DNA of 64,000 bases from Escherichia coli (GTDB taxonomy: Bacteria > Pseudomonadota > Gammaproteobacteria > Enterobacterales > Enterobacteriaceae): assembly GCF_016026235.1 (NCBI RefSeq), contig NZ_CP065613.1; one strand, 5' to 3'. The notes under the pieces were generated by a model. That model worked only from the letters and a program-made list of their open reading frames with translations, did no database searches and was not told where the DNA came from. The position numbers and the translations under genes are program-made. Shown here one piece after another: positions 46,031 through 64,000 of the stretch (positions within the stretch are counted from its first letter, which is position 1; each line of letters opens with the position of its first letter).

Positions 46031-48262
46031 AATTCCTAAAGTTGTTTTCTTACGATTTTGTCTCTCTCTAACCCGCATAAATACTGGTAGCATCTGCATT
46101 CAACTGGATAAAATTACAGGGATGCAGAATGAGACACTTTATCTATCAGGACGAAAAATCACATAAATTCTGGGCGGTTGAGCAGCAGGGAAACGAGCTG
46201 CATATCAACTGGGGCAAAGTCGGCACTAACGGGCAAAGCCAGATAAAAAGTTTTGCGGATGCTGCGGCAGCGGCAAAAGCGGAGCTTAAGCTGATCGCAG
46301 AGAAAACGAAAAAAGGCTATGTGGAAAATGCTTCAGCAAACGTGCATATCCCCCCCATTACCAAAGCCACTCCTGAAGTTGAAACTTCCCCTGAGAGTAA
46401 AAACCAACGCCCCTGGCTGGCTGATGATGCGGTCATTCGGCTAACTGACGATATTAATCGATTTGCTTTTCCTCATCGCTCTCGCCCCAGAGAGATCAAT
46501 TATCTGCACAAAGATGGTCAAATATGGCAGCTCATCGCGAATAACACCAGGGCATATGATCCCGCCAACAATTACCGTTCTTATCCAGAAAACTGGCAGC
46601 AGGCTTTTGCTGAGTTACAAATGCGAGTTCAGGGTAATCAACAGACAGGGAGTGCACAATCTGATGCAGCATTGCTCTGGAGTTTCTGGAACTCTTACTC
46701 TGCAGATGAACTGGTCGATGACTTAGTCATTCGCTGTGGTCTGGAAAGTGCCGTTGAAATTGCCCTTCTCGCTCTTCAACTTAGATATAAACCAGTAAAA
46801 GGCGCAGTAACCACCATCATTCCACCTAATCACAAAGCAGAATCGCTGCCGAGTTGGCATCAACGTCTATGTCATCATCTTTCACTCACTTCAGAAGATG
46901 AGTGGCAACGCTGTGTAGATAAAGTACTCGCCGCCATTCCGACGCTATCCCCAGCACGGCAACCTTTTGCGGCGTTACTGCTCCCCGAATGCCCGGATAT
47001 TGCCAATGCTATGGCGCTACGTTATGCAGACCAAAACGTTCCGGCGATGACCTGGTTAAGTATGATGGTAAGCGATGATGTTGCCCTGGCCATCCAGGAA
47101 AAATATGGTTTCCCACCGCTATATAATGATTTCCGCAAATATCTGGCTACGTTGCTGGCAAATAATGGAATGCGTGGTGTAAGCCGGATTCTTCTCAAGC
47201 TACCTGTCGACTATCCCGTAAAATACACGGACCTTTTCACTCACATACACGCCAATGCTGAAGATCTTGTCAAATGGCTATGGAAAACGAATCACCCGGA
47301 TGCGATTCAAATTCTGATCCTCGGTGTAAATGGCAAGAAAAAGCACCTGGAATACTTAAGCAAAGCCTGCCCAAAACATCCCGCTGCGGCTATTGCCGCT
47401 TATGCTACTTTGCTGGCAATACATGAAAATAATGAGTGGCGTAAAGCGCTTGTCAAACTGATTACCGCCACGCCAGAGTTAGTATGCGAGGTCATTCCCT
47501 GGGTTAATGCTAAGGCGGCAGGCATCTTATCTGAATGTCGTCCGCTGCCAGTAGCTGAAGAATGTGAATATGCCACTGTGGATATGTTGCCGGAGCTGCT
47601 TGTCGCTCCACCGTGGGTAATAAATAAGAAAAAGAATGTCATACCCGTATTTGATTTACCGGTACTTCCCATTCCTGCCGTCACGGATATCACACCAGGA
47701 ATTACAGAGTTAATCAGTCATACTGACATATCCAGATTCAGTGAAATTGCGCAATATCAGGCATCACAGCAAACCTTATTTACCGATCTGCCACTAATTG
47801 AAAAAGAAAGCTGGGAGACATCTTTCATTCCTTTTACACCAGAACAACAAATTCTTTGGCAATTAGGTTTTAATGAATGGCTGCATTGCGAAAATGACTT
47901 ACATGAAAAAAAATATATACCGCAAAGCGCTGTTGATGCCTTGTTGCGCTTTGATTTTTCAGCACTAAAAGCTGAGTTTGCGAAATATCACAACAATGCC
48001 AACAAAAGCTGGAATCTATCTGCGCTTTGTTACTTACCGGGACAACAGGCGATCTCATTTCTCAACCAAATAATCATTGAGGAGCGATATTCAGGTGAGA
48101 AAGAGATTCTGGCGGTTTTTGGTAGTACGGCCATTCCTGCGTTTATGACCTGCTTGCAACGAGATCATCAACGCCTGTGGATATTCACCCTTTTTATTGG
48201 AGCCAGTGAACTAGCCTTACCAATGGCGCAGCGGTTACAGAAAAAAATAGCTTACAAGGATG

Positions 48263-49688
48263 TAATGCCAGTCAGTTAAGCAACTGACTGGCTCTTTTTC
48301 GGGGCTGTGGGGTATTTCCAGGGCCTCTCCTTTACCACTCTCGGGAAGGCCCTTCCCCTTCTCGTCGGTAATTTCACAAGTTGTCCCATACTTGCAAGAT
48401 CGCGCATCAGCTCCGGTATACGTCCCGGTGAAGCGCCCTGCAATGTCATCAGCATTCTCATCACCATTCCGCATGATTCTGAGAAACTCAGTTGATTCGG
48501 CCAGTAACCTTTCAGATGTTCCGCCATTTTAATCATCTGATATCTCACCAGATTATAAGCCAGTAAGACACCCTACAGCTCTTGCTCCACAAGCTCCGGC
48601 TTTTTACTTCTCAGCGTCAGCCTGCTCAGTTGCATCGTCTGTTTTATCTCCCTGTATCCCAGTTCGATTTCCCAGCGATGACTGTACAGATCCGCCATTT
48701 CTCCTCCGGGGAAGCGCATGGCGTCCGTCATCGACGTCAGCAGATGGCAGACTTTTCCTTTGCGCGTCACGGTCAGCAGGCGGGCTGTCACTTCATTTCC
48801 CAGTCCCGGCCACTTTTTTCGTGCCTGCGGGCTGGTTTTCAGCTTCACCAGATGATCGCCTTTACCCAGTTTTCTGAGCTCTTCATATTGCGCTCCCTTT
48901 CTGAGAGGTATCATCCAGTGGCGGTGTTCTCCCGCCAGGCTCCAGGCATTTAACAGTCCCAGTGAGTAATAACCTTTATCCATTAACGTCAGAGTGTTAT
49001 CGCCGGTTTGTTCTATAAGTTGCTCAGCAAGCTCATTTTCGCTGTTCTTCATCGTGCCGAAGGCTGCAGCCGTCAGCAGATGGCTGGTCAGTTCCATCTG
49101 GCAGACCATTTTGACCTGCGGGTAGAGCGCCGGGTTCCCGGCATGTGTCTGGCGGGGGAAGGCTGCATCGTTCTCTGGTGTATCCGGTGTGCGCCAGAAC
49201 ACACCATCGATGGCCAGCAGGGTCAGGCCGCACCAGTGCGGATGCGGCGTGGCGTTATGCCAGAGCTGCGCTGTTTTCGTGAACACGCGGCGGACAGCCT
49301 CACTTCCCAGGCGCTGGCGGGCCTGAATAACGGCACTGGGGGCAACGAAGGGGCGATTGCCCGGCAGCATGATGTCCAGGCGATTCACAATCTGGTGAAG
49401 AGGTTCTTTACGCTCAAGCGCCATGCCAACAATACACCAGACCATCATTTCGAGGGGAAGACGGCGCTTGCGTAGCGTTACAGTACCTGATTCGGCAAGG
49501 CAACGAGAGATGAGTTCGGGGTCGAGGTAATCCCCCAGAGAAGTCAGTGGGTTACGCAGAGAATCGTAACGGGATACCAGATCAAGAGCCTGTCCAATGT
49601 GCATAAAAAAATCCGGAAACAAGTGAGCGTTTCCGGATTCTTACACAGCCACTGGATCGGTCAACTGATCCTTAACTGATCGGCATTA
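48263..49688 (-). mobile_element. IS4, copy 2 (1426 bp)
   Basis: Same ends as copy 1; 12-bp target site duplication CTTACAAGGATG at 48251-48262 and 49689-49700. Confidence 0.9.
48276..49604 (-). pseudogene. insG: IS4 transposase with premature amber codon
   Basis: Single C-to-T difference at 48574 relative to copy 1 (13593) changes TGG (Trp) to TAG at 48573-48575; the ORF track shows the split 349 aa + 90 aa. Confidence 0.85.
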
Positions 49689-52600
49689 CTTACAAGGATG
49701 CCGTTAATTGGCTGGCAAATAACCCGCGCCATGCCGCCGCTGGGCTACTGCCTTTGGCGCTGGGCAAACCGTGCCAAAATCGGGAATATGCCCGCCAGGC
49801 ACTCCTCCTGCTAGTGAAATTAAACCAGCGAGAAACGATTGAGGAAATCGCCCAAGGATATAATCAACCTGATGTTTTAGCTGCGCTGGCAACATTATTT
49901 GATAGCGACCCACTGGAAGAATATCCTGCAAAAATCGCCCCACTGCCCGGCTTTTATCAGTTCCCCTTATGGCGCAGACCTCGGCTTAAAAGTAACAACC
50001 TGCCTCTGCCAGATGACGCTATGCGCCACCTCGGCACAATGTTGAGCTTTCCACGCGACATTACCTCCTACGCTGGGCTGGCGATCATCAAAGAGACCTT
50101 CACCCGCGAATCACTGGCTGACTTTGGCTGGGATCTCTACACGGCATGGACAGAAGCAGGCGCACCCGCAAAAGAGAACTGGGCATTTACCTCGCTGGGG
50201 ATTCTAGGCAATGACGACACCGCGCGTAAACTAACCCCGCTCATCCGCGCCTGGCCGGGTGAATCCCAGCATAAACGCGCGGTTTACGGGCTGGATGTGT
50301 TAGCCAGTATCGGTAGCGACATTGCGCTTATGTTGCTTAATGGCATTGCGCAAAAGATTAAATTCGTTGCATTACAGGAACATGCCAGCGACAGAATCAA
50401 TATGGTCGCCGAAAATCGCGGACTGACAATGGCCGAACTGGAAGATCGCCTGGCACCGGATTTAGGGCTTGATAGCAGTGGCTCGCTGACACTGGATTTC
50501 GGCCCACGTCAATTTACCGTTGGTTTTGACGAAACTTTAAAACCTGTAGTGCGCGACGCAAACGGCAAAGTCCTGAAAGATTTGCCCAAACCAAACCAGA
50601 GCGATGAAAAAACTCAGGCAACTGACGCGGTTAATCTCTTCAAACAGTTGAAAAAAGATGTACGCGCCATAGCCAGCCAGCAGATTGATCGTCTGGAACA
50701 GGCTATGTGCCAGCGCAGACGCTGGACGGCAGAGCAGTTCCGCCTGTTTCTGGTGGAGCATCCGCTGGTACGTCACTTAACCCGACGGCTGTTATGGGGG
50801 GTTTATAACGATGAAAACGCCCTTATCACCTGTTTTCGCGTGGCAGAAGACAGCACTTACAGCGATGCGCAGGATGAGTTATTCACGCTGCCAGCAGGAA
50901 ACATCGGTATACCGCATGTGCTGGAAATCCCCCCTGAATCCGCCGCTGCATTCAGGCAAATTTACGTTGATTACGAACTGCTTCCCCCTTTCCAACAGCT
51001 CGAACGTGGTAGTTACCACCTTGCTGATAACGAACGTAATGTCCATGAATTGTCACGCTGGGACGGACGTCTCTGCCAGGCCGGACGCATTGTCGGGCTG
51101 GAACGCAGAGGCTGGCAACGTCTGGAAGAAAGCGGCAGCGTCTATGCGATGCGCAAATCTACCCCTTATGGTGCTCTCGAACTTGAAACAGAACCTTTTT
51201 CATTAATTTATGGCGAAACGGGGTATAGCGACCTGCTGCCTGTCGAAAGCGTAAAAATCACCGCCCCTTATGATCGCTATGGTAAACAATCCTCACCCAC
51301 TTTCTCCGTGCTCGACGACATCACCGCCAGCGAGCTGATTAACGACATTGAATCACTGTTTGATTAAAAGGATTTAACAATGAAAACCTATATTTATCAG
51401 GACGAAAAATCACATAAATTCTGGGCGGTGGAGCAGCAGAGAAACGAGCTGCATATCAACTGGGGCAAAGTCGGCACTAACGGGCAAAGTCAGGTAAAAA
51501 GCTTTGCTGATGCTGCGGCGGCAGAAAAAGCGGAACTGAAGCTGATTGCGGAGAAGGTGAAGAAGGGGTATGTGGAGCAAGTAGACGCTAACGCTCACTC
51601 ACATGATGCCTCAGCAAAGAAAGTCCTAGTCACAGAGGAAAAAGCCTCAATAAATCACCAGGCAGCAACTAATGGTTTACCCTGGCTGGCAGACAACGAT
51701 CCCATTATTCTTCCCCCGAATATTGCCCGCCATGCCCTCAGCCACCGCCTTTGGCCGGGAGAGCCAGTAAAAAAACCAACCAAACCCGAGAAACAAAATT
51801 TAATTTCCCGATTGGCAAATCGTACTTATCATTATTATAAAAATCTGACTTTCGATTACAGCTCATGCTCTGATGAATGGGCTGATGCGATTAGCCAGGC
51901 AATCAGCTTAATTAAGGCCCAAAAGACTGAGATACCCGCGCGTACTATGGCGGTACTTACTTTTCTGGAAATATGTTTTTGTCAGGGCTGGAATGATGAA
52001 ACCTCATCCGAGTTGCTGGATGAAATTGTAAGCACCTTCGGTATCGAATACGCAACTGAAACTGTCATCTTCTGGTGGCAAATTGATTTCGATTTTGACT
52101 ATAAAGATGAACATTTGACTTTCTTTATTAATTATGCAGATAGCAGCAAGGACAGTTATAGAAGGAATAACGACAAATTTAGTTTACGTCTGCGTAAACA
52201 TTTATCACTAGCAGAAGAAGAAGTATGGCAAAATTGCATTGCAAAATTACTCGTTGCGTTACCAGATATATCACTCTATCGCCAACCGTTAATTGCCATT
52301 TTAATGCCAGAAATACCCGAAGTGGCCCATGAGATCGTACATCGTTTACACCAGGTCGCAGATGTTCCACAACTTGAAATGTTGAAACTGGTAGCGACAG
52401 ATCCATTCACGCTCGAAATACTGGAGAACTATCAATACATTGATGTATTTAACACCTATGGTGCCAGTTGGTCAGCTACGGTATTACGGGAACAAGGTAT
52501 AGCGGCACTGGCTCGCCTGGCTTCCTATGCTGAAGAAGATAATTGCGGTGACGTACTGAAATGTATTAATCATCCGTTGGCCATTACGGCACTCATCGAA

Positions 52601-52951: not shown

Positions 52952-54246
52952 CCTGAGGGATCCCCAGAAAATTTAGTAAACCATTATCATATTGGTATAC
53001 CGTTGCTGTAGAACTTTCAGCCCTGCGTCAAGTGACAGTGTGTTTAGTATGAGTGGAGAATGTCGAATCACATTCTCCGCCAGTTTTAATAACGAGATGA
53101 CTCGCCTGTGCTTCACTGTATTTGCCTGATATTTATGATGTATCCCTTTGTTTTCCAGGCTGAAACCGCTTAACCACATAATGATACTGGCTAATGTTGC
53201 GATCAGACTCAATACCGTGACCCGCCCGGATGAATGACTGGCACCAAACCGTAGTCCAAATCCCCAGCGAGGATTTTTTTCATCCCTGAAATTTTGCTCA
53301 ATTTGCATTCTACGGCTGTATAATTTCATTACCTGTTTTGGCGAGAACTCAGTACTGTTTGTGAAAATAAACCATGGTGATTTCCCGGCAGTACGAGCTT
53401 TAGCCGTCACCGATGGTCTGGTTGCTCTTTCCTTCGAGCGTTTAAATCTACGACCTTTAGGCTTACTTTTATAAAGATAAAAATGCCCTTCATGTTGTGC
53501 ATTTTTATCTCGACCCAGCAGGCCTTCACCTAAATAAATTGCTGTCGTTGATGCTTTTGTGCCTGAGTCCGACACCTTTTCCCAGCCATTACCAACATTG
53601 TAATAATGATTGCCCAGTACCCGGCAAATATAGGTCCAGCCACGGGAGCGGAGCTGTTGGAACCATCGCCCCTGAAAACCGGCATCTGTAATAACAATGA
53701 CATCAGTCCCGGGGGAAAAGCACTCAGCAAGCGATTCCAGAAAACGCTCATGTACATCTGCATTCGCTGTCTGTGATGATGGAACGACACAACTCATCAA
53801 CGGTAAAGAACGCCCGTCACATGCCAGGCTTGCCCGCAAAAGCTGAAAACGAGAGGCATGATAAGCACTCCAGTCAATGAGTATCACAACACGAGACATT
53901 CCCCGCGTAATCTTTTGGGTAATTCGCTGAAAAATGGTGGAAACCTCATTTTGCAAATGTCGATTCCCCAACAGTCGATCCACCCGCTTTATTTTGTTTT
54001 TAACTGATGCCGTACCGGTTAAATGACGCCCGATACTGGTAAGTGTGAGGGAAGCGCCATTTATTACAGCATTAGTTGCGTCAATCAGTGATTTTTGACG
54101 GTAAAGATGCAAAGGGGCCAGTATGTTGTTAAGGAAATTTTGGCATAATGAACGTGCAGGCATAGTGGTGATCTCCTTGAAATTGTTAGCACAATCAATT
54201 AGATCACATCTCACTATGCCTGTCTTGTTTTCTGGGGATTCCTCAG
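52952..54246 (-). mobile_element. IS10-like IS4-family insertion sequence, copy 3 (1295 bp, inverted)
   Basis: Same TIRs; 9-bp target site duplication GCGAAAATC at 52943-52951 and 54247-54255. Confidence 0.85.
52973..54214 (-). CDS. IS4-family (IS10-like) DDE transposase
   Basis: Same protein as copies 1 and 2; ORF-track entry 52973-54301 is extended N-terminally past the IS end, so it is trimmed to the position equivalent to the copy 1 start. Confidence 0.8.
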   Translation of the reverse strand: MRCDLIDCANNFKEITTMPARSLCQNFLNNILAPLHLYRQKSLIDATNAVINGASLTLTSIGRHLTGTASVKNKIKRVDRLLGNRHLQNEVSTIFQRITQKITRGMSRVVILIDWSAYHASRFQLLRASLACDGRSLPLMSCVVPSSQTANADVHERFLESLAECFSPGTDVIVITDAGFQGRWFQQLRSRGWTYICRVLGNHYYNVGNGWEKVSDSGTKASTTAIYLGEGLLGRDKNAQHEGHFYLYKSKPKGRRFKRSKERATRPSVTAKARTAGKSPWFIFTNSTEFSPKQVMKLYSRRMQIEQNFRDEKNPRWGFGLRFGASHSSGRVTVLSLIATLASIIMWLSGFSLENKGIHHKYQANTVKHRRVISLLKLAENVIRHSPLILNTLSLDAGLKVLQQRYTNMIMVY

Positions 54247-55725
54247 GCGAAAATCCCCCCTTTACCGTTGTTTTATCAACCTCCATTATGGACTCGCCCA
54301 AAACTCAAAAATAGCAGCAAGGTACTGCCAGATAACGCCCTCCTCCACCTCGGTGAAATGCTCCGCTTCCCTCAGGAAGAGGCCCTGTATCCGGGATTAT
54401 TGCAGGTGAAAGATGCCTGTACCGCCGACTCACTGGCTGAATTTGCCTGGGATCTGTTTACCGCCTGGCTGACTGCGGGCGCACCGTCGAAAGAGAGTTG
54501 GGCGTTCACTGCGTTAGGCGTTCTTGGTAACGATGACACCGCCCGCAAACTGACGCCATTAATACGCGCCTGGCCTGGTGAATCCCAGCATAAACGCGCC
54601 ACCGTTGGGTTGGATATTCTCGCCGCTATCGGTAGTGATATCGCCCTGATGCAGCTTAACGGTATTGCCCAGAAACTGAAATTCAAAGCATTACAGGAGC
54701 GGGCAAAAGAAAAAATTGCCGACATTGCCGAAAGCCGCGAACTCACGGTGGCAGAGCTTGAAGATCGGTTAGCACCGGATCTCGGTCTGGATGATAACGG
54801 TTCGTTGCTGCTGGATTTCGGCTCACGCCAGTTCACCGTCAGCTTTGATGAAACCTTAAAACCGTTTGTGCGTGATGTTTCTGGCAGCCGTCTGAAAGAC
54901 CTGCCCAAACCAAACAAAAGCGATGATGAATCACAGGCGAACGATGCTGTTAACCGCTACAAACTGCTGAAAAAAGATGCGCGTACCGTCGCCGCCCAGC
55001 AGGTAGCAAGGCTGGAATCCGCCATGTGCCTGCGTCGCCGCTGGTCACCGGAAAACTTTCAGCTCTTCCTGGTTGAGCATCCGCTAGTTCGCCACTTAAC
55101 CCGCCGTCTGATTTGGGGCGTTTATAGCGCCGAAAACCAGCTACTGGCCTGTTTCCGGGTAGCGGAAGATAACAGCTACAGCACCGCTGACGATGATCTT
55201 TTCACCCTGCCGGAAGGCGATATCTCTGTTGGTATTCCTCACGTTCTGGAAATATCACCGACGGATGCCGCCGCATTTGGGCAGCTTTTTGCCGACTACG
55301 AACTGCTACCGCCGTTCCGCCAACTCGACCGTAACAGTTACGCCCTGACAGAAACCGAGCGCAATGCCAGCGAACTGACCCGCTGGGCAGGCAGAAAATG
55401 CCCGAGCGGTCGGGTAATGGGGCTGGCGAATAAAGGCTGGATAAAGGGCGAACCACAGGATGGAGGCTGGATCGGCTGGATGATCAAACCTCTGGGCCGC
55501 TGGTCGTTAATCATGGAAATCGATGAAGGCTTTGCGGTAGGCATGTCGCCAGCCGAACTGAGTGCCGAGCAACTCTTAAGCAAGCTGTGGCTATGGGAAG
55601 GCAAAGCGGAAAGCTATGGCTGGGGGAGTAATTCAACACAGGAAGCGCAGCTCTCCGTACTCGATGCCATCACCGCCAGCGAGCTAATTAACGATATTGA
55701 AGCCCTGTTTGAATAAGGAAAGAGC

Positions 55726-58700
55726 ATGGACAAGGAATTACCGTGGCTGGCTGATAACGCCCAACTGGAACTGAAATATAAAAAGGGTAAAACACCACTC
55801 AGCCATCGCAATTGGCCGGGCGAACCAGTGCCTGTTATCACTGAAAGCATCATTCAGACACTGGGTGATGAATTGCTACAAAAAGCTGAGAAGAAAAAAA
55901 ACATTGTCTGGCGTTATGAAAATTTTTTACTGGAGTGGCAGTCCGCCATCACGCAGGCCATCAACTTGATCGGCGAACACAAACCCTCAATCCCAGCCCG
56001 GACAATGGCGGCGCTAGCCTGTATCGCGCAAAATGACAGCCAACAGTTGCTCGACGAAATCGTCCAACAAGAGGGGCTGGAATATGCGACGGATGTAGTG
56101 ATGGCGCGTCAGTGCATTGCGCGGCGTTATGAGAGTGATTCACTGGTCGTCACTTTGCAGTATCAGGACGAGGACTATGGCTACGGTTATGGCTCCGCGA
56201 CCTATAACGATTTCGATCTCCGTTTGCGTAAGCATCTGTCGCTGGCAGAGGAAAGTTGCTGGCAGCGTTGTGCCGATAAACTCATTGCCGCACTGCCAGG
56301 AATACCCAAAATTCGCCGTCCTTTTATTGCGCTGATCCTCCCGGAAAAGCCTGAAATAGCCAATGAACTCGCCAGTCTTGAAAGCTCCCGGTCAAGTCTC
56401 CATTCAAAGGAGTGGTTAAAGGTCGTTGCTACTGATAATACGGCGGTAAAAAAACTCGAACGATACTGGGGCCTGGACGTATTTAGCGATCGCGAAGCCA
56501 GCTACATGTCACAAAAAAACCACTTCGGCTACGCGGCCTGCGCCGCCCTTTTGCGCGAACAAGGACTGGCAGCCATTCCGCGCCTCGCGATGTATGCCCA
56601 TAAAGAAGATTGCGGCAGTCTGTTGGTACAAATTAACCATCCGCAGGTCATCCACACCTTGCTACTGGTGGCTGATAAAAACAAACCCAGCCTGCAACGT
56701 GTGGCTAAATACAGTAAAAACTTCCCCCACGCGACGCTCGCGGCACTGGCAGAACTGCTGGCGTTAAAAGAACCACCAGCCCGCCCTGGTTATCCAATCA
56801 TCGAAGACAAAAAGCTGCCTGCCCAGCAAAAAGCACGCGATGAATACTGGCGTACGCTGTTACAAACGCTGATGGCATCGCAGCCACAACTGGCAGAAGA
56901 GGTGATGCAGTGGTTAAGTACTCAAGCCCGGGCAGTACTGAATAGTTATTTATTGGCACCGCCCAAACCGGTTATTGATGGCACCGATAACAGCAATCTG
57001 CCTGAAATCCTCGTTTCACCACCGTGGCGTAGTAAGAAAAAAATGACAGCTCCACGTCTTGATTTGGCACCGCTCGAATTAACCCCGCAAGTTTACTGGC
57101 AACCAGGCGAACAAGAGAGGCTTGCCTCCACTGAGTCTGCCCGTTATTTCAGCACGGAATCTCTTGCGGAACGCATGGAACAAAAAAGTGGGCGAGTTGT
57201 ATTACAGGAACTGGGTTTTGGGGATGATGTATGGCTGTTTCTGAATTATATACTCCCCGGAAAACTGGATGCTGCACGCAATTCACTCATTGTTCAGTGG
57301 CATTACTACCAGGGGCGGGTTGAAGAGATCCTGAATGGCTGGAACTCCCCGGAAGCACAATTAGCAGAACAGGCGCTCCGCAGCGGTCACATAGAAGCGT
57401 TAATTAACATATGGGAAAATGACAACTACTCACGTTATCGTCCGGAAAAGAGTGTCTGGAACCTGTATTTATTGGCACAGTTGCCGCGTGAGATGGCTTT
57501 GACCTTCTGGCTGCGTATCAATGAGAAAAAACATCTGTTCGCGGGTGAGGACTATTTTCTTAGTATCCTCGGGTTGGATGCGCTACCAGGTCTGATGTTG
57601 GCTTTTTCACATCGTACAAAAGAAACATTTCCGTTAATTTTAAATTTTGGCGCAACAGAACTGGCCCTGCCCGTTGCCCGCGTCTGGCGACGTTTCGCGG
57701 TGCAGCGTGATCTGGCTCGCCAGTGGATTTTACATTGGCCGGAACATACGGCTACTGCACTTATCCCTCTTGTCTTCACCAAATCCAGCGATAATAGCGA
57801 AGCTGCATTACTTGCCCTGCGTTTACTTTACGAACATGGGCATGGCGAATTGCTACAAACTGTAGCCAATCGTTGGCAGCGTAAAGATGTATGGCCTGCC
57901 CTGGAACAATTACTGAAACAGGGTCCAATGGACATTTACCCGGCACGCATTCCAAAAGCCCCTGATTTCTGGCATCCGGCAATGTGGTCCAGGCCTCGAC
58001 TTATCACTAATAATCAGCCTGTTACCGATGACGCTCTGGAAATTATCGGCGAAATGCTGCGCTTTACCCAGGGGGGACGTTTTTATAGCGGGCTGGAACA
58101 ACTGAAAACGTTTTGCCAGCCACAAACGCTGGCCGCTTTTGCCTGGGATCTCTTCACTGCGTGGCAACAAGCTGGTGCCCCCGCAAAAGACAACTGGGCA
58201 TTTCTGGCGTTAAGTCTCTTTGGTGACGAAAGCACGGCTCGGGATCTGACGACACAGATCCTCGCCTGGCCACAAGAAGGCAAATCTGCCCGTGCTGTCA
58301 TTGGTCTGAATATACTTACCTTGATGAATAATGATATGGCGCTGATACAGCTGCATCATGTATCACAACGGGCGAAATCCTCTTCATTACGTGAAAACGC
58401 AGCGGAATTTCTTCAGGTGGTCGCAGAAAATCGCGGGCTAAGCCAGGAAGAGTTAGCGGACAGATTAGTCCCAACACTGGGTCTTGATGATCCGCAGGCG
58501 TTGATTTTTGATTTTGGTCCCCGGCAGTTTACCGTTCGCTTCGATGAAAACCTCAACCCGGTTATCTTTGATCAGCAAAACGTTCGCCAGAAAAGCGTTC
58601 CCCGGTTGCGCGCCGATGACGATCAACTGAAAGCGCCCGAGGCACTGGCCCGACTAAAAGGGCTAAAAAAAGATGCTACTCAGGTGAGCAAAAACCTGCT

Positions 58701-59358
58701 CCCGCGTCTTGAAGCTGCCCTACGTACCACCCGACGCTGGTCGCTGGCAGATTTTCATTCTCTGTTTGTTAATCATCCCTTTACCCGTCTGGTTACCCAG
58801 CGATTAATATGGGGGGTTTATCCGGCAAATGAACCGCGTTGTTTACTCAACGCCTTTCGTGTGGCCGCAGAGGGGGAGTTCTGCAATGCGCAAGATGAGC
58901 CAATTGACCTGCCTGCGGACACTCTGATTGGCATTGCCCACCCGTTAGAAATGACAGCAGAAATGCGCAGTGAATTTGCACAGCTTTTTGCCGATTACGA
59001 AATTATGCCGCCTTTTCGCCAGTTGTCGCGCCGCACGGTGCTGCTCACACCTGACGAGTCAACCAGTAACAGCCTGACTCGCTGGGAAGGTAAATCCGCT
59101 ACCGTTGGGCAACTTATGGGAATGCGATACAAAGGCTGGGAGTCAGGCTATGAGGACGCATTTGTCTATGACCTGGGTGAGTACCGGCTGGTCCTTAAGT
59201 TTTCACCCGGTTTTAACCACTACAATGTTGATAGCAAAGCGCTAATGAGCTTCCGTTCTCTTCGAGTGTACCGTGACAATAAATCCGTCACTTTTGCCGA
59301 ACTTGATGTGTTTGATTTGAGTGAGGCGTTAAGCGCACCTGACGTCATTTTCCATTAA
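55726..59358 (+). CDS. yehI: YehI (DUF4132-type giant protein, 1210 aa), third paralog, lacking the N-terminal WGR segment
   Basis: ORF track; N-terminus aligns with paralog A/B residues after the WGR segment; the C-terminal half repeats the same module. Confidence 0.85.
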   Translation: MDKELPWLADNAQLELKYKKGKTPLSHRNWPGEPVPVITESIIQTLGDELLQKAEKKKNIVWRYENFLLEWQSAITQAINLIGEHKPSIPARTMAALACIAQNDSQQLLDEIVQQEGLEYATDVVMARQCIARRYESDSLVVTLQYQDEDYGYGYGSATYNDFDLRLRKHLSLAEESCWQRCADKLIAALPGIPKIRRPFIALILPEKPEIANELASLESSRSSLHSKEWLKVVATDNTAVKKLERYWGLDVFSDREASYMSQKNHFGYAACAALLREQGLAAIPRLAMYAHKEDCGSLLVQINHPQVIHTLLLVADKNKPSLQRVAKYSKNFPHATLAALAELLALKEPPARPGYPIIEDKKLPAQQKARDEYWRTLLQTLMASQPQLAEEVMQWLSTQARAVLNSYLLAPPKPVIDGTDNSNLPEILVSPPWRSKKKMTAPRLDLAPLELTPQVYWQPGEQERLASTESARYFSTESLAERMEQKSGRVVLQELGFGDDVWLFLNYILPGKLDAARNSLIVQWHYYQGRVEEILNGWNSPEAQLAEQALRSGHIEALINIWENDNYSRYRPEKSVWNLYLLAQLPREMALTFWLRINEKKHLFAGEDYFLSILGLDALPGLMLAFSHRTKETFPLILNFGATELALPVARVWRRFAVQRDLARQWILHWPEHTATALIPLVFTKSSDNSEAALLALRLLYEHGHGELLQTVANRWQRKDVWPALEQLLKQGPMDIYPARIPKAPDFWHPAMWSRPRLITNNQPVTDDALEIIGEMLRFTQGGRFYSGLEQLKTFCQPQTLAAFAWDLFTAWQQAGAPAKDNWAFLALSLFGDESTARDLTTQILAWPQEGKSARAVIGLNILTLMNNDMALIQLHHVSQRAKSSSLRENAAEFLQVVAENRGLSQEELADRLVPTLGLDDPQALIFDFGPRQFTVRFDENLNPVIFDQQNVRQKSVPRLRADDDQLKAPEALARLKGLKKDATQVSKNLLPRLEAALRTTRRWSLADFHSLFVNHPFTRLVTQRLIWGVYPANEPRCLLNAFRVAAEGEFCNAQDEPIDLPADTLIGIAHPLEMTAEMRSEFAQLFADYEIMPPFRQLSRRTVLLTPDESTSNSLTRWEGKSATVGQLMGMRYKGWESGYEDAFVYDLGEYRLVLKFSPGFNHYNVDSKALMSFRSLRVYRDNKSVTFAELDVFDLSEALSAPDVIFH

Positions 59359-59418: not shown

Positions 59419-59739
59419 ATGATCGTGCAAAAAGAGCTGGTTGCTATTTACGATTATGAGGTCCCTGTACCTGAAGATCCGTTTTCCTTCAGACTTGAGA
59501 TCCATAAATGCTCTGAATTATTTACAGGTTCCGTCTATCGACTGGAGCGATTCCGGCTACATCCAACATTTCATCAACGTGATCGAGAAGATGCTGACCC
59601 GCTAATAAATGATGCGTTGATTTATATAAGAGATGAGTGTATTGATGAGCGGAAATTACGAGGTGAATCACCTGAAACTGTAATAGCAATTTTTAATCGT
59701 GAACTACAGAATATATTCATCCAACAAATAGAAAAATAG
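59419..59739 (+). CDS. yehK: YehK (106 aa)
   Basis: ORF track; recognised. Confidence 0.8.
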   Translation: MIVQKELVAIYDYEVPVPEDPFSFRLEIHKCSELFTGSVYRLERFRLHPTFHQRDREDADPLINDALIYIRDECIDERKLRGESPETVIAIFNRELQNIFIQQIEK

Positions 59740-60400: not shown

Positions 60401-60490
60401 TTACTTCAACAAATCAATCAACTGTAACAGAGCTACTAATAGCTCCAGTACAGCAATGAGCACGGTTAACTTTTGTGTCAGCGTGTCCAT
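60401..60490 (-). CDS. zorP: Type I toxin, ZorP-like (29 aa, MDTLTQKLTVLIAVLELLVALLQLIDLLK)
   Basis: Own translation of the second repeat unit; 2 aa differences from unit 1 (I9T, R23Q). Confidence 0.7.
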   Translation of the reverse strand: MDTLTQKLTVLIAVLELLVALLQLIDLLK

Positions 60491-60922: not shown

Positions 60923-62011
60923 ATGTCACCGCAGAATAATCATCTGCAGCGTCCGCCTGCTGCTGTGTTATACGCCGATGAACTGGCAAAATTAAAACAA
61001 AATGATAACGCACCTTGCCCGCCCGGTTGGCAGTTAAGTTTGCCTGCGGCCCGTGCTTTTATCCTTGGCGATAGCGCGCAAAATATTAGCCGTAAAGTGG
61101 TGATTAGTCCCTCCGCTGTCGAACGTATGTTAGTCACTCTTGCCACCGGACGCGGTTTGATGTTGGTGGGGGAACCTGGCACCGCAAAATCTCTCCTGTC
61201 TGAATTACTGGCAACCGCTATTAGCGGCGATGCCGGGTTAACCGTCCAGGGCGGCGCATCTACTACCGAAGATCAAATCAAGTACGGCTGGAACTACGCC
61301 CTGCTTATCAATCATGGTCCATCAACGGAAGCGCTGGTCCCTGCCCCGCTTTACCAGGGAATGCGCGACGGCAAAATCGTCCGTTTTGAAGAGATAACGC
61401 GTACACCGCTGGAAGTGCAAGACTGTCTGTTAGGCATGCTTTCTGACAGGGTGATGACGGTGCCGGAACTCACTGGTGAAGCCAGTCAGCTCTATGCGCG
61501 AGAAGGCTTTAATATTATTGCCACTGCCAATACCCGCGATCGCGGCGTCAATGAAATGAGTGCTGCGCTAAAGCGTCGCTTCGATTTTGAAACTGTCTTT
61601 CCGATTATGGATTTCGCCCAGGAGCTGGAGCTTGTCGCCAGTGCTTCGGCGCGTTTGCTGGCCCATAGCGGTATTCCGCATAAAGTGCCTGACGCGGTAC
61701 TGGAGTTACTGGTCCGCACCTTCCGCGATCTGCGTGCCAACGGCGAAAAGAAAACGTCAATGGATACACTAACAGCGATTATGTCCACGGCTGAAGCCGT
61801 GAACGTGGCCCACGCCGTGGGCGTCCGCGCCTGGTTTTTAGCGAATCGCGCGGGGGAGCCTGCCGACCTGGTGGACTGTATTGCCGGAACCATCGTCAAA
61901 GATAACGAAGAAGATCGCGCTCGTCTGCGCCGTTACTTCGAACAGCGTGTCGCCACACATAAAGAAGCTCACTGGCAGGCTTATTATCAAGCCCGCCACC
62001 GCCTGCCGTGA
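60923..62011 (+). CDS. yehL: MoxR-family AAA+ ATPase YehL (362 aa)
   Basis: ORF track 60857-62011; start trimmed to MSPQNNHLQ; Walker A GEPGTAKS. Confidence 0.85.
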   Translation: MSPQNNHLQRPPAAVLYADELAKLKQNDNAPCPPGWQLSLPAARAFILGDSAQNISRKVVISPSAVERMLVTLATGRGLMLVGEPGTAKSLLSELLATAISGDAGLTVQGGASTTEDQIKYGWNYALLINHGPSTEALVPAPLYQGMRDGKIVRFEEITRTPLEVQDCLLGMLSDRVMTVPELTGEASQLYAREGFNIIATANTRDRGVNEMSAALKRRFDFETVFPIMDFAQELELVASASARLLAHSGIPHKVPDAVLELLVRTFRDLRANGEKKTSMDTLTAIMSTAEAVNVAHAVGVRAWFLANRAGEPADLVDCIAGTIVKDNEEDRARLRRYFEQRVATHKEAHWQAYYQARHRLP

Positions 62012-62021
62012 GGAAAGATGC

Positions 62022-64000
62022 ATGAGCGAGCCGTTAATTGTCGGCATCCGGCATCATAGTCCGGCCTGCGCCCGGCTGGTGAAATCGTTAATCGAAAGCC
62101 AGCGGCCACGATACGTGTTGATTGAAGGCCCGGCTGATTTTAATGACCGGGTAGACGAACTGTTTTTAGCCCACCAGCTTCCGGTAGCTATTTACAGTTA
62201 TTGCCAGTATCAGGACGGTGCAGCCCCCGGGCGTGGTGCCTGGACGCCATTTGCTGAATTTTCGCCGGAGTGGCAGGCGCTACAAGCCGCTCGTCGTATT
62301 CAGGCACAAACTTACTTCATCGATTTGCCTTGCTGGGCACAGAGTGAAGAAGAGGACGATTCGCCTGATACGCAAGAGGAAAGCCAGACCTTGCTGCTGC
62401 GTGCCACCCGCATGGATAACAGCGATAACCTGTGGGATCACTTGTTCGAAGATGAAAGCCAGCAAACTGCATTACCCTCTGCACTGGCGCACTATTTTGC
62501 CCAACTGCGGGGCGATTTCCCCGGCGATGCACTCAATCGTCAGCGCGAAGCCTTTATGGCTCGCTGGATTGCATGGGCGGTGCAGCAAAATAATGGCGAC
62601 GTGTTAGTCGTCTGCGGTGGCTGGCACGCTCCGGCACTGGCAAAAATGTGGCGCGAATGCCCGCAGGACATTAACAAGCCAGAATTGCCCTCGCTGGCAG
62701 ATGCCGTTACAGGTTGTTATCTCACACCCTACAGTGAAAAGCGCCTTGATGTGCTGGCAGGATACCTTTCAGGAATGCCTGCCCCGGTCTGGCAAAGCTG
62801 GTGCTGGCTGTGGGGCTTACAGCAGGCGGGAGAACAACTGCTAAAAACGGTTCTTACCCGTTTGCGCCAACACCACTTGCCTGCTTCGACCGCGGATATG
62901 GCTGCCGCTCATCTGCATGCGATGGCGCTGGCACAGTTGCGCGGACATAAACTACCGTTACGCACTGACTGGCTGGATGCCATAGCAGGCTCGCTGATTA
63001 AAGAAGCCCTGAACGCGCCGTTGCCGTGGAGCTATCGCGGAGTTATTCATCCCGACACCGATCCGATTCTGCTAACGTTGATAGACACATTAGCGGGTGA
63101 CGGATTCGGTAAACTTGCCCCTTCTACGCCACAACCGCCTCTGCCAAAAGATGTCACCTGCGAACTGGAACGTACCGCAATCTCTCTTCCGGCGGAGCTT
63201 ACCTTAAATCGCTTTACCCCCAATGGACTAGCGCAAAGTCAGGTGTTACATCGTCTGGCAATACTGGAGATCCCAGGGATTGTACGCCAGCAGGGAAGCA
63301 CACTGACACTTGCAGGCAACGGTGAAGAACGCTGGAAATTAACCCGCCCACTTAGCCAGCATGCGGCATTGATTGAGGCCGCCTGCTTTGGTGCAACACT
63401 CCAGGAAGCCGCACGCCATAAATTAGAAGCCGATATGCTGGACGCGGGTGGAATCGGCAGTATCACCACATGTCTTAGCCAGGCGGCGTTAGCGGGTCTG
63501 GCGTCCTTCAGTCAACAATTACTGGAACAACTCACATTATTAATCGCCCAGGAAAATCAATTTGCCGAAATGGGCCAGGCGCTGGAAGTGCTATATGCAT
63601 TATGGCGGCTGGATGAAATTAGCGGTATGCAAGGCGCGCAGATATTACAAACGACGTTATGCGCGGCTATCGATCGCACGCTCTGGCTGTGTGAATCCAA
63701 CGGCAAACCGGATGAAAAGGAGTTTCACGCTCACCTGCATAGCTGGCAGGCGCTTTGCCATATCCTGCGCGATCTACATAGCGGCGTTAATTTACCCGGC
63801 GTTTCGCTTTCTGCGGCGGTAGCCTTACTGGAGCGACGCAGTCAGGCGATTCATGCCCCGGCGCTGGATCGCGGCGCGGCTCTTGGCGCACTGATGCGTC
63901 TGGAACATCCCAACGCCAGTGCCGAAGCGGCGCTGGCGATGCTGGCACAGTTTTTCCCGGCACAATCCGGCGAAGCGCTGCACGGTTTGCTGGCATTAGC
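62022..64000 (+). CDS. yehM: YehM (partial; continues beyond the window end)
   Basis: Open frame from ATG 62022 (MSEPLIVGIRHHSPACARLV) to the end of the window; K-12 synteny after yehL. Confidence 0.7.
   Translation, partial: MSEPLIVGIRHHSPACARLVKSLIESQRPRYVLIEGPADFNDRVDELFLAHQLPVAIYSYCQYQDGAAPGRGAWTPFAEFSPEWQALQAARRIQAQTYFIDLPCWAQSEEEDDSPDTQEESQTLLLRATRMDNSDNLWDHLFEDESQQTALPSALAHYFAQLRGDFPGDALNRQREAFMARWIAWAVQQNNGDVLVVCGGWHAPALAKMWRECPQDINKPELPSLADAVTGCYLTPYSEKRLDVLAGYLSGMPAPVWQSWCWLWGLQQAGEQLLKTVLTRLRQHHLPASTADMAAAHLHAMALAQLRGHKLPLRTDWLDAIAGSLIKEALNAPLPWSYRGVIHPDTDPILLTLIDTLAGDGFGKLAPSTPQPPLPKDVTCELERTAISLPAELTLNRFTPNGLAQSQVLHRLAILEIPGIVRQQGSTLTLAGNGEERWKLTRPLSQHAALIEAACFGATLQEAARHKLEADMLDAGGIGSITTCLSQAALAGLASFSQQLLEQLTLLIAQENQFAEMGQALEVLYALWRLDEISGMQGAQILQTTLCAAIDRTLWLCESNGKPDEKEFHAHLHSWQALCHILRDLHSGVNLPGVSLSAAVALLERRSQAIHAPALDRGAALGALMRLEHPNASAEAALAMLAQFFPAQSGEALHGLLAL

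Follow-up and report, generated by a model that had tools for sequence, protein, structure and literature searches.

The Escherichia coli chromosome carries, between metG and yehL, three related genes in tandem, referred to here as paralog A, paralog B and yehI, and in this work we analyzed them in a stretch of 64,000 nucleotides of contig NZ_CP065613.1 (hereafter, the window). Our main conclusion is that YehI very probably is a whole-gene tandem duplicate that lost the amino-terminal WGR head carried by its two neighbours, and not a product of shuffled assembly. As judged from their sequences, A, B and yehI arose as tandem duplicates of a whole gene and later lost segments. The array A-B-YehI would have been formed by duplication of one ancestral gene placed directly upstream of yehL-yehM-yehP-yehQ, whose product had a WGR head followed by three body modules (WGR-N-M-C). 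YehI would have lost only the WGR head and the linker, approximately 95 residues, and kept all three body modules; the B allele of this lineage would have undergone an internal deletion of M. To the explanation as a whole, in which this evolutionary and architectural account is blended with a mechanism, we assign a probability of roughly 0.6; the mechanism itself is tentative and is presented further below.

Architecture of YehI and its paralogs

Since the copies of A and B in the window are each split by an insertion sequence (IS) element, the intact proteins of a near-identical strain (NZ_CP093068.1, locus L001) were used as reference. In the annotation of this locus A has 1266 and B 1010 amino acids, both are named "DUF4132 domain-containing protein", and yehI, K, L, M, P and Q come next. 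The fragments of A and B in the window are 99-100% identical to these intact proteins, and YehI shares 99.5% identity with the YehI annotated in strain BR1220. The array in the window is composed as follows:

46129..48262, + strand: 5' part of paralog A, residues 1 to approximately 711 (WGR, N and most of M), truncated by IS4
46144-46335: WGR domain of paralog A, residues 6-69, from the Pfam match on the intact L001 protein
48263..49688, - strand: IS4 inside paralog A, with the 12-bp target-site duplication CTTACAAGGATG
49689..51367, + strand: 3' part of paralog A (end of M and C module with DUF4132), 100% identical to residues 730-1266 of A of L001
51380..52953, + strand: 5' part of paralog B (WGR and N, residues 1-525), interrupted by ISEc60 exactly at the N/C junction motif KYPAKIP
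about 52954..54245, - strand: ISEc60 (IS4 family) inside paralog B, with a target-site duplication of ~12 bp
54246..55716, + strand: 3' part of paralog B (C module with DUF4132), with the stop codon 9 nt before the yehI ATG
55726..59358, + strand: yehI, an intact open reading frame (ORF) of 1210 residues without WGR head, with an ATG start (Pfam, alignments, and a ratio of nonsynonymous to synonymous substitution rates, dN/dS, of ~0.19)
55738..57051, + strand: N module of YehI, residues 5-442, a helical solenoid that opens with the family motif LPWLAD
57052..57918, + strand: M module of YehI, residues 443-731, helical, present also in A and in most of the family
57919..59355, + strand: C module of YehI, residues 732-1210, which starts at the motif IYPARIPKAPDFWHPAMWSRPRL and comprises a helical repeat and then alpha/beta domains
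58585..59139, + strand: Pfam DUF4132 (PF13569) match within the C module of YehI, residues 954-1138 (E = 5e-47)

An earlier note on this DNA had proposed that the first ~130 residues of YehI align to A and B after their WGR segment, and that a segment near residue 740 aligns to the C module of both. The two alignments were recovered: residues 1-130 of YehI match B 100-230 (46% identity, E = 8e-27) and A 95-213 (24%, E = 1e-5), residues 725-790 match A 773-838 (42%, E = 2e-15) and B 514-572 (44%, E = 4e-15), and the motif quoted in that note aligns column for column in a three-way alignment (DIYPARIPKAPDFWHPAMWSRPRL / EEYPAKIAPLPGFYQFPLWRRPRL / GKYPAKIPPLPLFYQPPLWTRPKL). The pairwise alignments also revealed that the similarity reaches well past these two segments. 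Residues 6-1209 of YehI align with A 95-1265 (31% identity, E = 4.6e-172), residues 5-439 with B 100-510 (39%, E = 2e-74), and residues 732-1163 with B 514-950 (45%, E = 2e-118). Low-complexity stretches do not account for these results, as no segment of 20 residues in YehI has an entropy below 2.5 bits. The similarity first noted is confirmed, and it is more extensive than stated.

The DUF4132 domain (gathering score 27 bits) was found by Pfam in the three proteins, with 160.5 bits in YehI, 171 bits in A and 181 bits in B. The WGR domain (PF05406, gathering score 22 bits) was detected in A (67 bits) and in B (residues 7-69, 65 bits), and no Pfam match to it was obtained in YehI even at E values up to 1, in agreement with the absence of the head that had been noticed from the letters of the DNA. 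In the three-way alignment YehI starts, with LPWLAD, at the residue that comes after the WGR head and linker of A and B; given that the stop codon of B and the ATG of yehI are so close, no hidden remnant of a WGR domain lies upstream of YehI.

The layout shared by the three proteins had been described as consisting of two modules. That the layout is common holds, but the number of modules does not, since three of them follow the head. In total, four parts can be distinguished: the WGR head with its linker (~95 residues, not in YehI), N (YehI 5-442, ~440 residues), M (443-731, ~290 residues) and C (732-1210, ~480 residues). The two-module appearance comes from the B of this lineage, which lacks M; the usual layout of the family is WGR-N-M-C, of ~1250 residues, and M is present in most of its members. 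YehI shows the collinear full-length similarity that characterizes the MolR-like family, and the hidden Markov models (HMMs) of the modules match N, M and C in that order. All the residues that are invariant in the family are kept in YehI; in the C module they include W813, W848, R1045, H1072, Q1099 and R1102. In profile-profile comparisons carried out with hhalign, N, M and the two halves of C (helical and alpha/beta) were mutually unrelated, and no internal repeats were found within the modules. An origin of M by duplication of part of N or C was rejected, as hhalign showed no relationship.

The structures of the modules were modelled with AlphaFold on alignments of diverse homologues. The model of C (mean confidence score, pLDDT, of 93.1) shows a helical repeat followed by alpha/beta domains, and that of N plus M (mean pLDDT of 86.7) is almost wholly helical. 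The best structural matches of N, M and the first part of C, all predicted helical repeats, were HEAT/ARM alpha-solenoid scaffolds (importin-beta, the A subunit of PP2A, the N-terminus of TSC2, TOG domains); a Foldseek search against the PDB gave no match at E values up to 0.001. A sequence search of the PDB with YehI gave no match, and the family profile matched only chains that contain WGR, i.e. 2ra8 (E = 2e-20) and the WGR domain of PARP3, 2eoc (E = 0.002). N, M and the helical part of C are not modelled by Pfam or NCBIfam; in the latter database the single match was that of the WGR head to an unrelated equivalog of Leptospira, far under its cut-off.

Part of this description is already in public annotation. 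Proteins with the Pfam domains DUF4132 and WGR make up the "MolR family", with YehF/YehH (molR) and YehI in E. coli; YehI matches DUF4132, and A and B match both. The names in RefSeq are "DUF4132 domain-containing protein YehI" and "WGR and DUF4132 domain-containing protein". The observation that YehI is a DUF4132 protein with WGR plus DUF4132 neighbours is correct but not new, and since the product names already reveal that the head is missing, the headless finding itself adds little. In contrast with the modules described above, the DUF4132 model covers only ~180 of the 1210 residues of YehI.

Origin and recurrence of the headless form

In Intestinirhabdus alba a single gene is found between metG and yehL; it encodes a WGR-N-M-C protein of 1279 residues that shows 54% identity to YehI over its full length. 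In neighbour-joining trees of N and of C, this gene is sister to the clade formed by the WGR-less YehI proteins of Escherichia, Klebsiella and Serratia, whereas A and B form separate clades, each with a counterpart from another enterobacterial locus (L003). The order headed-headed-headless upstream of yehL is also present in Klebsiella oxytoca and in L003, and WGR-less relatives that span the entire YehI, with 56-62% identity, occur in Serratia and Klebsiella species. From the position of the I. alba gene in the trees and the shared order of the array, we infer that YehI descends from the headed gene proximal to yehL.

The earlier note had also suggested that the head is optional, and this view is borne out. 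Most full-length relatives among 1.84 billion representative proteins show the WGR-N-M-C layout, and forms without WGR recur, including copies verified with Pfam in Actinomycetota. For instance, Goodfellowiella has an array formed by a WGR plus DUF4132 protein of 1314 residues and two DUF4132-only proteins of 1162 and 1134 residues, followed by yehLMPQ, and in Mycolicibacterium a single headless gene of 1213 codons precedes yehLMPQ. The WGR head is truly optional, because arrays with headed and headless genes recur independently. Apparent headless copies in metagenome-assembled loci of Comamonadaceae (e.g. L018), in which the ORFs are fragmented, were not relied on.

In Massilia (L022, L025, L028, L030, L035, L044) there are several loci per genome, with arrays of 4 to 5 or more tandem WGR/DUF4132 genes, headed and headless; these are the largest expansion of the family seen here.

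Linkage to yehLMPQ and a possible mechanism

The genes downstream of the array were analyzed by means of a genome scan, with one genome per species, that yielded 578 confirmed stretches encoding relatives of the C module; 69 distinct loci from Beta- and Gammaproteobacteria, Desulfuromonadota, Myxococcota, Actinomycetota and Acidobacteriota were examined. The ORFs of these loci in the six frames were scanned with the module HMMs and with profiles of YehL, M, P and Q, and those loci with enough downstream sequence were considered informative. A YehL homologue starts no more than 2.5 kb downstream of the last DUF4132 gene in 43 of the 55 informative loci, usually within 500 nt, and in the linked loci homologues of YehM, YehP and YehQ come after it; YehL and YehP are found together in at least 39 of the scanned loci. 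The same five-gene order accompanies a relative with only 33% identity. In the window, the beginning of this set is included:

60923..62011, + strand: yehL, an AAA_5 (MoxR/midasin-like) ATPase, the first gene of the linked yehLMPQ set
62022..64000, + strand: yehM (DUF5682), which runs off the end of the window

YehL matches AAA_5 (E = 1e-34) and its nearest solved relatives in sequence are the AAA modules of midasin; YehP matches VWA_CoxE (E = 2e-72) and is a CoxE-type VWA protein; YehM is a DUF5682 protein and YehQ carries a SWIM zinc finger. The joint encoding of a MoxR-type AAA+ protein and a VWA/MIDAS protein is a property of these neighbours, not of YehI itself. In this regard the set resembles the MoxR-VWA pairs (RavA-ViaA, CoxD-CoxE, NorQ-NorD, CbbQ-CbbO), which are likewise encoded beside a specific large partner protein, and midasin (Rea1/Mdn1). 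It differs from them in that it adds the WGR/DUF4132 protein, the DUF5682 protein YehM and the SWIM protein YehQ, which are in none of the characterized pairs; the match to the model of the bpMoxR ternary system was below threshold (18.6 bits, with a cut-off of 27). The head of A and B, in turn, resembles the WGR domain with which PARP1-3 recognize DNA breaks, but the PARP catalytic domain is not present, A and B read W-G-K instead of W-G-R, and YehI has no WGR domain.

Upstream of paralog A there is a candidate regulatory site:

46102..46121, + strand: LexA-type box AACTGGATAAAATTACAGGG (CTG-N10-CAG), 8 nt 5' of the start codon of paralog A

L003 and I. alba (L009) have a CTG-N10-CAG box in the corresponding position, and molR has been listed among the LexA-regulated genes with a known SOS box (review, PMC6590174). 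The strict LexA consensus gave no match in the window, and the molR box fits only the looser CTG-N10-CAG form. It has also been reported that the molR promoter is activated by BglJ-RcsB (PMC3950696). A head of the type that binds DNA breaks, placed under SOS control, is a suggestive combination that has had no apparent follow-up in any study.

From these data a mechanism can be proposed. The body of the protein would be a scaffold for protein interactions, in which the C module would act as the constant part that couples to the remodelling pair formed by YehL (MoxR/midasin-like AAA+) and YehP (VWA/MIDAS), together with YehM and the SWIM protein YehQ, and the fast-diverging solenoids N and M would provide the recognition surface. 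In the headed copies, the WGR head would add binding to nucleic acids, probably to DNA ends. YehI would be the head-independent subunit, working alone or in mixed assemblies with its headed paralogs, and in enterobacteria the array would be expressed from an SOS- and BglJ-RcsB-controlled promoter located upstream of A. We consider it possible, with less than even odds, that C docks to YehL-YehP, that N and M recognize a ligand, that WGR binds nucleic acid and that YehI works without this last contact. A broader proposal, to which we give a somewhat lower chance, is that the WGR-solenoid-DUF4132 protein and YehL, M, P and Q form one undescribed five-component surveillance machine, triggered by damage or by invaders, with YehI as its head-independent sensor variant. 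The first component of this machine may be a recognition subunit that diversifies: its genes would be amplified in tandem, its N and M modules hypervariable and its C module constant, a head that binds DNA ends would be present or absent, and in enterobacteria DNA damage would switch it on through a LexA box.

Several observations count against the explanation favoured here. The link between YehI and YehLMPQ consists only of gene order, and some relatives occur alone, with 12 of the 55 informative loci unlinked; in two loci the yehLMPQ set is rearranged, and most of the other unlinked ones are extra Massilia copies. As the C module has no informative structural relative, it cannot be given an activity. 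None of the 48 loci from outside the enterobacteria yielded an E. coli-type LexA box. A, B and sometimes yehI are frequently disrupted by IS elements or transposons, for which reason the genes are dispensable under many conditions, and in this window the upstream IS4 and ISEc60 may be polar on the expression of yehI.

Alternative accounts and variation of the locus

In E. coli, yehI is present with at least 80% of its length covered in 5222 of 5426 complete genomes. Between alleles its dN/dS is 0.19-0.20, as compared with 0.02 for metG, 0.03-0.06 for yehL, 0.03-0.10 for yehP and 0.11-0.15 for yehM; yehI is under purifying selection that is weaker than that on metG, yehL and yehP and near that on yehM. 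The variation is unevenly distributed along the gene, with a synonymous divergence (dS) of 0.26-0.38 in N and M and of 0.02-0.10 in the alpha/beta part of C. Alleles of A show nonsynonymous divergence (dN) values of 0.088 in N, 0.175 in M and 0.037 in C, and overall N and M are variable and C is constant.

This pattern is also what could be expected if the array and yehLMPQ were an anti-phage or other conflict system, in which the variable solenoids sense invaders, the MoxR-VWA pair transduces the signal and YehI is one of the sensor variants. Hypervariable N and M stand beside a constant C, tandem amplification has given 3 sensor-like genes in E. coli and 5 or more in Massilia, yehI is less conserved across E. 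coli (mostly 90-95% nucleotide identity) than the flanking metG and yehLM (95-99%), a type I toxin-antitoxin pair lies inside the locus (see below), and yehL and yehM are up-regulated in hns/stpA mutants (PMC3686432). Nevertheless, YehI, A, B, YehK, L, M, P and Q gave no match in PADLOC-DB v2 at E values up to 0.01, no recognizable effector domain (nuclease, protease, pore) was found, and the locus belongs to a syntenic core region, from metG to yehR, conserved across enterobacteria and is not a mobile island. No defence role appeared in the literature searched, with few searches and almost no literature on the family; the papers listed for DUF4132 gave nothing on function, and those for DUF5682, or for a link between WGR, SWIM, MoxR and VWA, gave nothing at all. 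On balance we regard a conflict system as unlikely.

The earlier note had spoken of reusable modules, and one could propose, in line with that term, that the family was assembled from independent modules that recombine into different proteins. There are variants that lack WGR, N or M (WGR-M-C, N-M-C, WGR-N-C), and the alleles of B in E. coli are mosaic. The B of 1010 residues, without M, has a match over 80% or more of its length in only 407 of 5426 complete genomes, and other strains, e.g. TUM2367, have a B of 1253 residues that includes M. When the two classes are compared (L013 5230-8991 and L001 10692-13724), WGR is ~94% and C ~97% identical, and N only ~45%, with M missing in one class; such a pattern suggests that the central part of the gene was exchanged as a cassette, and represents a mosaic within one species. 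A and B of the same array also differ unevenly, with 70% identity in the head, 64% in C and 32% in N.

Natural chimeras have been found as well: in-frame fusions in E. coli (P0020, P0040, P0119, P0115) give the body of YehI a WGR head, e.g. A(1-290)::YehI(377-1210), and in locus L011 the whole array has collapsed to one gene of 1246 codons, with a B-type front and a YehI-type C module. These fusions and the array collapse are rare singletons, and the chimeras are deletion fusions inside the array. In addition, the order of the modules is always WGR-N-M-C; a search with N plus M gave only 282 representative proteins at E values up to 0.001, and the 62 matches of at least 550 residues that were examined all belong to the MolR-like family; and the end-to-end alignment of the E. 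coli genes and the trees fit whole-gene duplication followed by loss. The idea of reusable modules was for these reasons overstated, and keeps a part of its validity in the B alleles; assembly of the family by shuffling seems to us distinctly improbable, and duplication of whole genes with later loss of the head remains the favoured account of YehI.

According to the historic reading of MolR, still reflected in sources that use the name molybdate metabolism regulator, the protein would be a regulator or maturation factor of molybdate or molybdoenzyme metabolism, and the MoxR-VWA pair would act in cofactor insertion like CoxD-CoxE. CoxD and CoxE act in the maturation of a Mo-Cu centre, YehP belongs to the CoxE-type VWA family, and YehL is a MoxR-type AAA+ protein. 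Against this, Pfam and NCBIfam revealed no helix-turn-helix, regulator or metal-binding domain (a weak match to the WhiA helix-turn-helix reached 13.4 bits, with a threshold of 27), no molybdenum-related genes were found in the neighbourhoods inspected, and in K-12 the molR gene is a pseudogene split into yehF and yehH, with yehI intact. We consider this reading very unlikely.

The least likely possibility is that YehI is a decaying relic, a truncated duplicate without a function of its own: it lacks the head that most of the family has, its dN/dS of 0.19 is above those of metG (0.02) and yehL (0.05), and the locus is a hot spot of insertions, with TnMB1860 in ST131, IS5 in yehI of strain FDAARGOS_943 and many truncated database entries, but that same value over 1210 codons denotes clear purifying selection, yehI is intact in the window and in K-12 although the upstream paralogs are broken in both, full-length headless relatives are retained in Escherichia, Klebsiella and Serratia, the family-invariant residues are all present, and independent headless copies exist in Actinomycetota.

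Regarding the insertions, A and B of the window each carry a simple IS insertion and are otherwise intact, for which reason their inactivation looks recent. A match spanning 80% or more of ISEc60 was obtained in only 14 of the 5426 E. coli genomes, but 38 places match it in strain FDAARGOS_943. In ST131, the resistance transposon TnMB1860 is also integrated in the metG/DUF4132/yeh region (PMC9334617). For yehI, metG and yehLM, the strain most closely related to the window is that of L014 (NZ_CP065615.1), in which phage tail and baseplate genes are found upstream, and IS600 and IS5 insertions disrupt the upstream MolR-like paralogs and yehI itself, an example of how often this region is interrupted.

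The complete gene order in the window is apbC/mrp, metG, paralog A, paralog B, yehI, yehK, a spacer, yehL and yehM, and the remaining features are the following:

43946-45988: metG
59419-59739: yehK, an ORF of 106 residues
59793-59882 and 60401-60490, - strand: two hydrophobic ORFs of 29 residues (MDTLTQKLIVLIAVLELLVALLRLIDLLK and a near-identical copy), in a tandem repeat of ~608 bp

YehK gave no match in Pfam or PADLOC; yehK does not occur in the Klebsiella, Serratia-like and I. alba loci, for which reason it looks like an Escherichia-specific addition, and it is frameshifted in strain TUM2367. The spacer between yehK and yehL is 1.1 kb long and holds the zor-orz toxin region. The pair of ORFs of 29 residues fits the description of z3289/z3290 (zorO-type) type I toxins, which, with their small RNA antitoxins, have been reported between yehI and yehL in O157:H7 and are absent from K-12 (PMC2887945).

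The family has been of unknown function in E. coli K-12 for decades, and the picture that emerges is clearer, with three body modules rather than one DUF and a headless form that is derived and yet conserved and under selection. It also bears on the annotations of E. coli at this locus, which often look inconsistent owing to the frequent IS insertions, deletion fusions and allele cassettes. N and M vary as a recognition surface would and C is constant, from which testable hypotheses can be put forward: docking of C to the MoxR-VWA pair, binding of WGR to DNA ends, and SOS-controlled expression. The real novelty would lie in the uncharacterized five-gene system; if the proposal of a five-component machine were true, it would represent a new kind of damage- or invader-triggered surveillance, extending from Proteobacteria to Actinomycetota, Myxococcota and Acidobacteriota.

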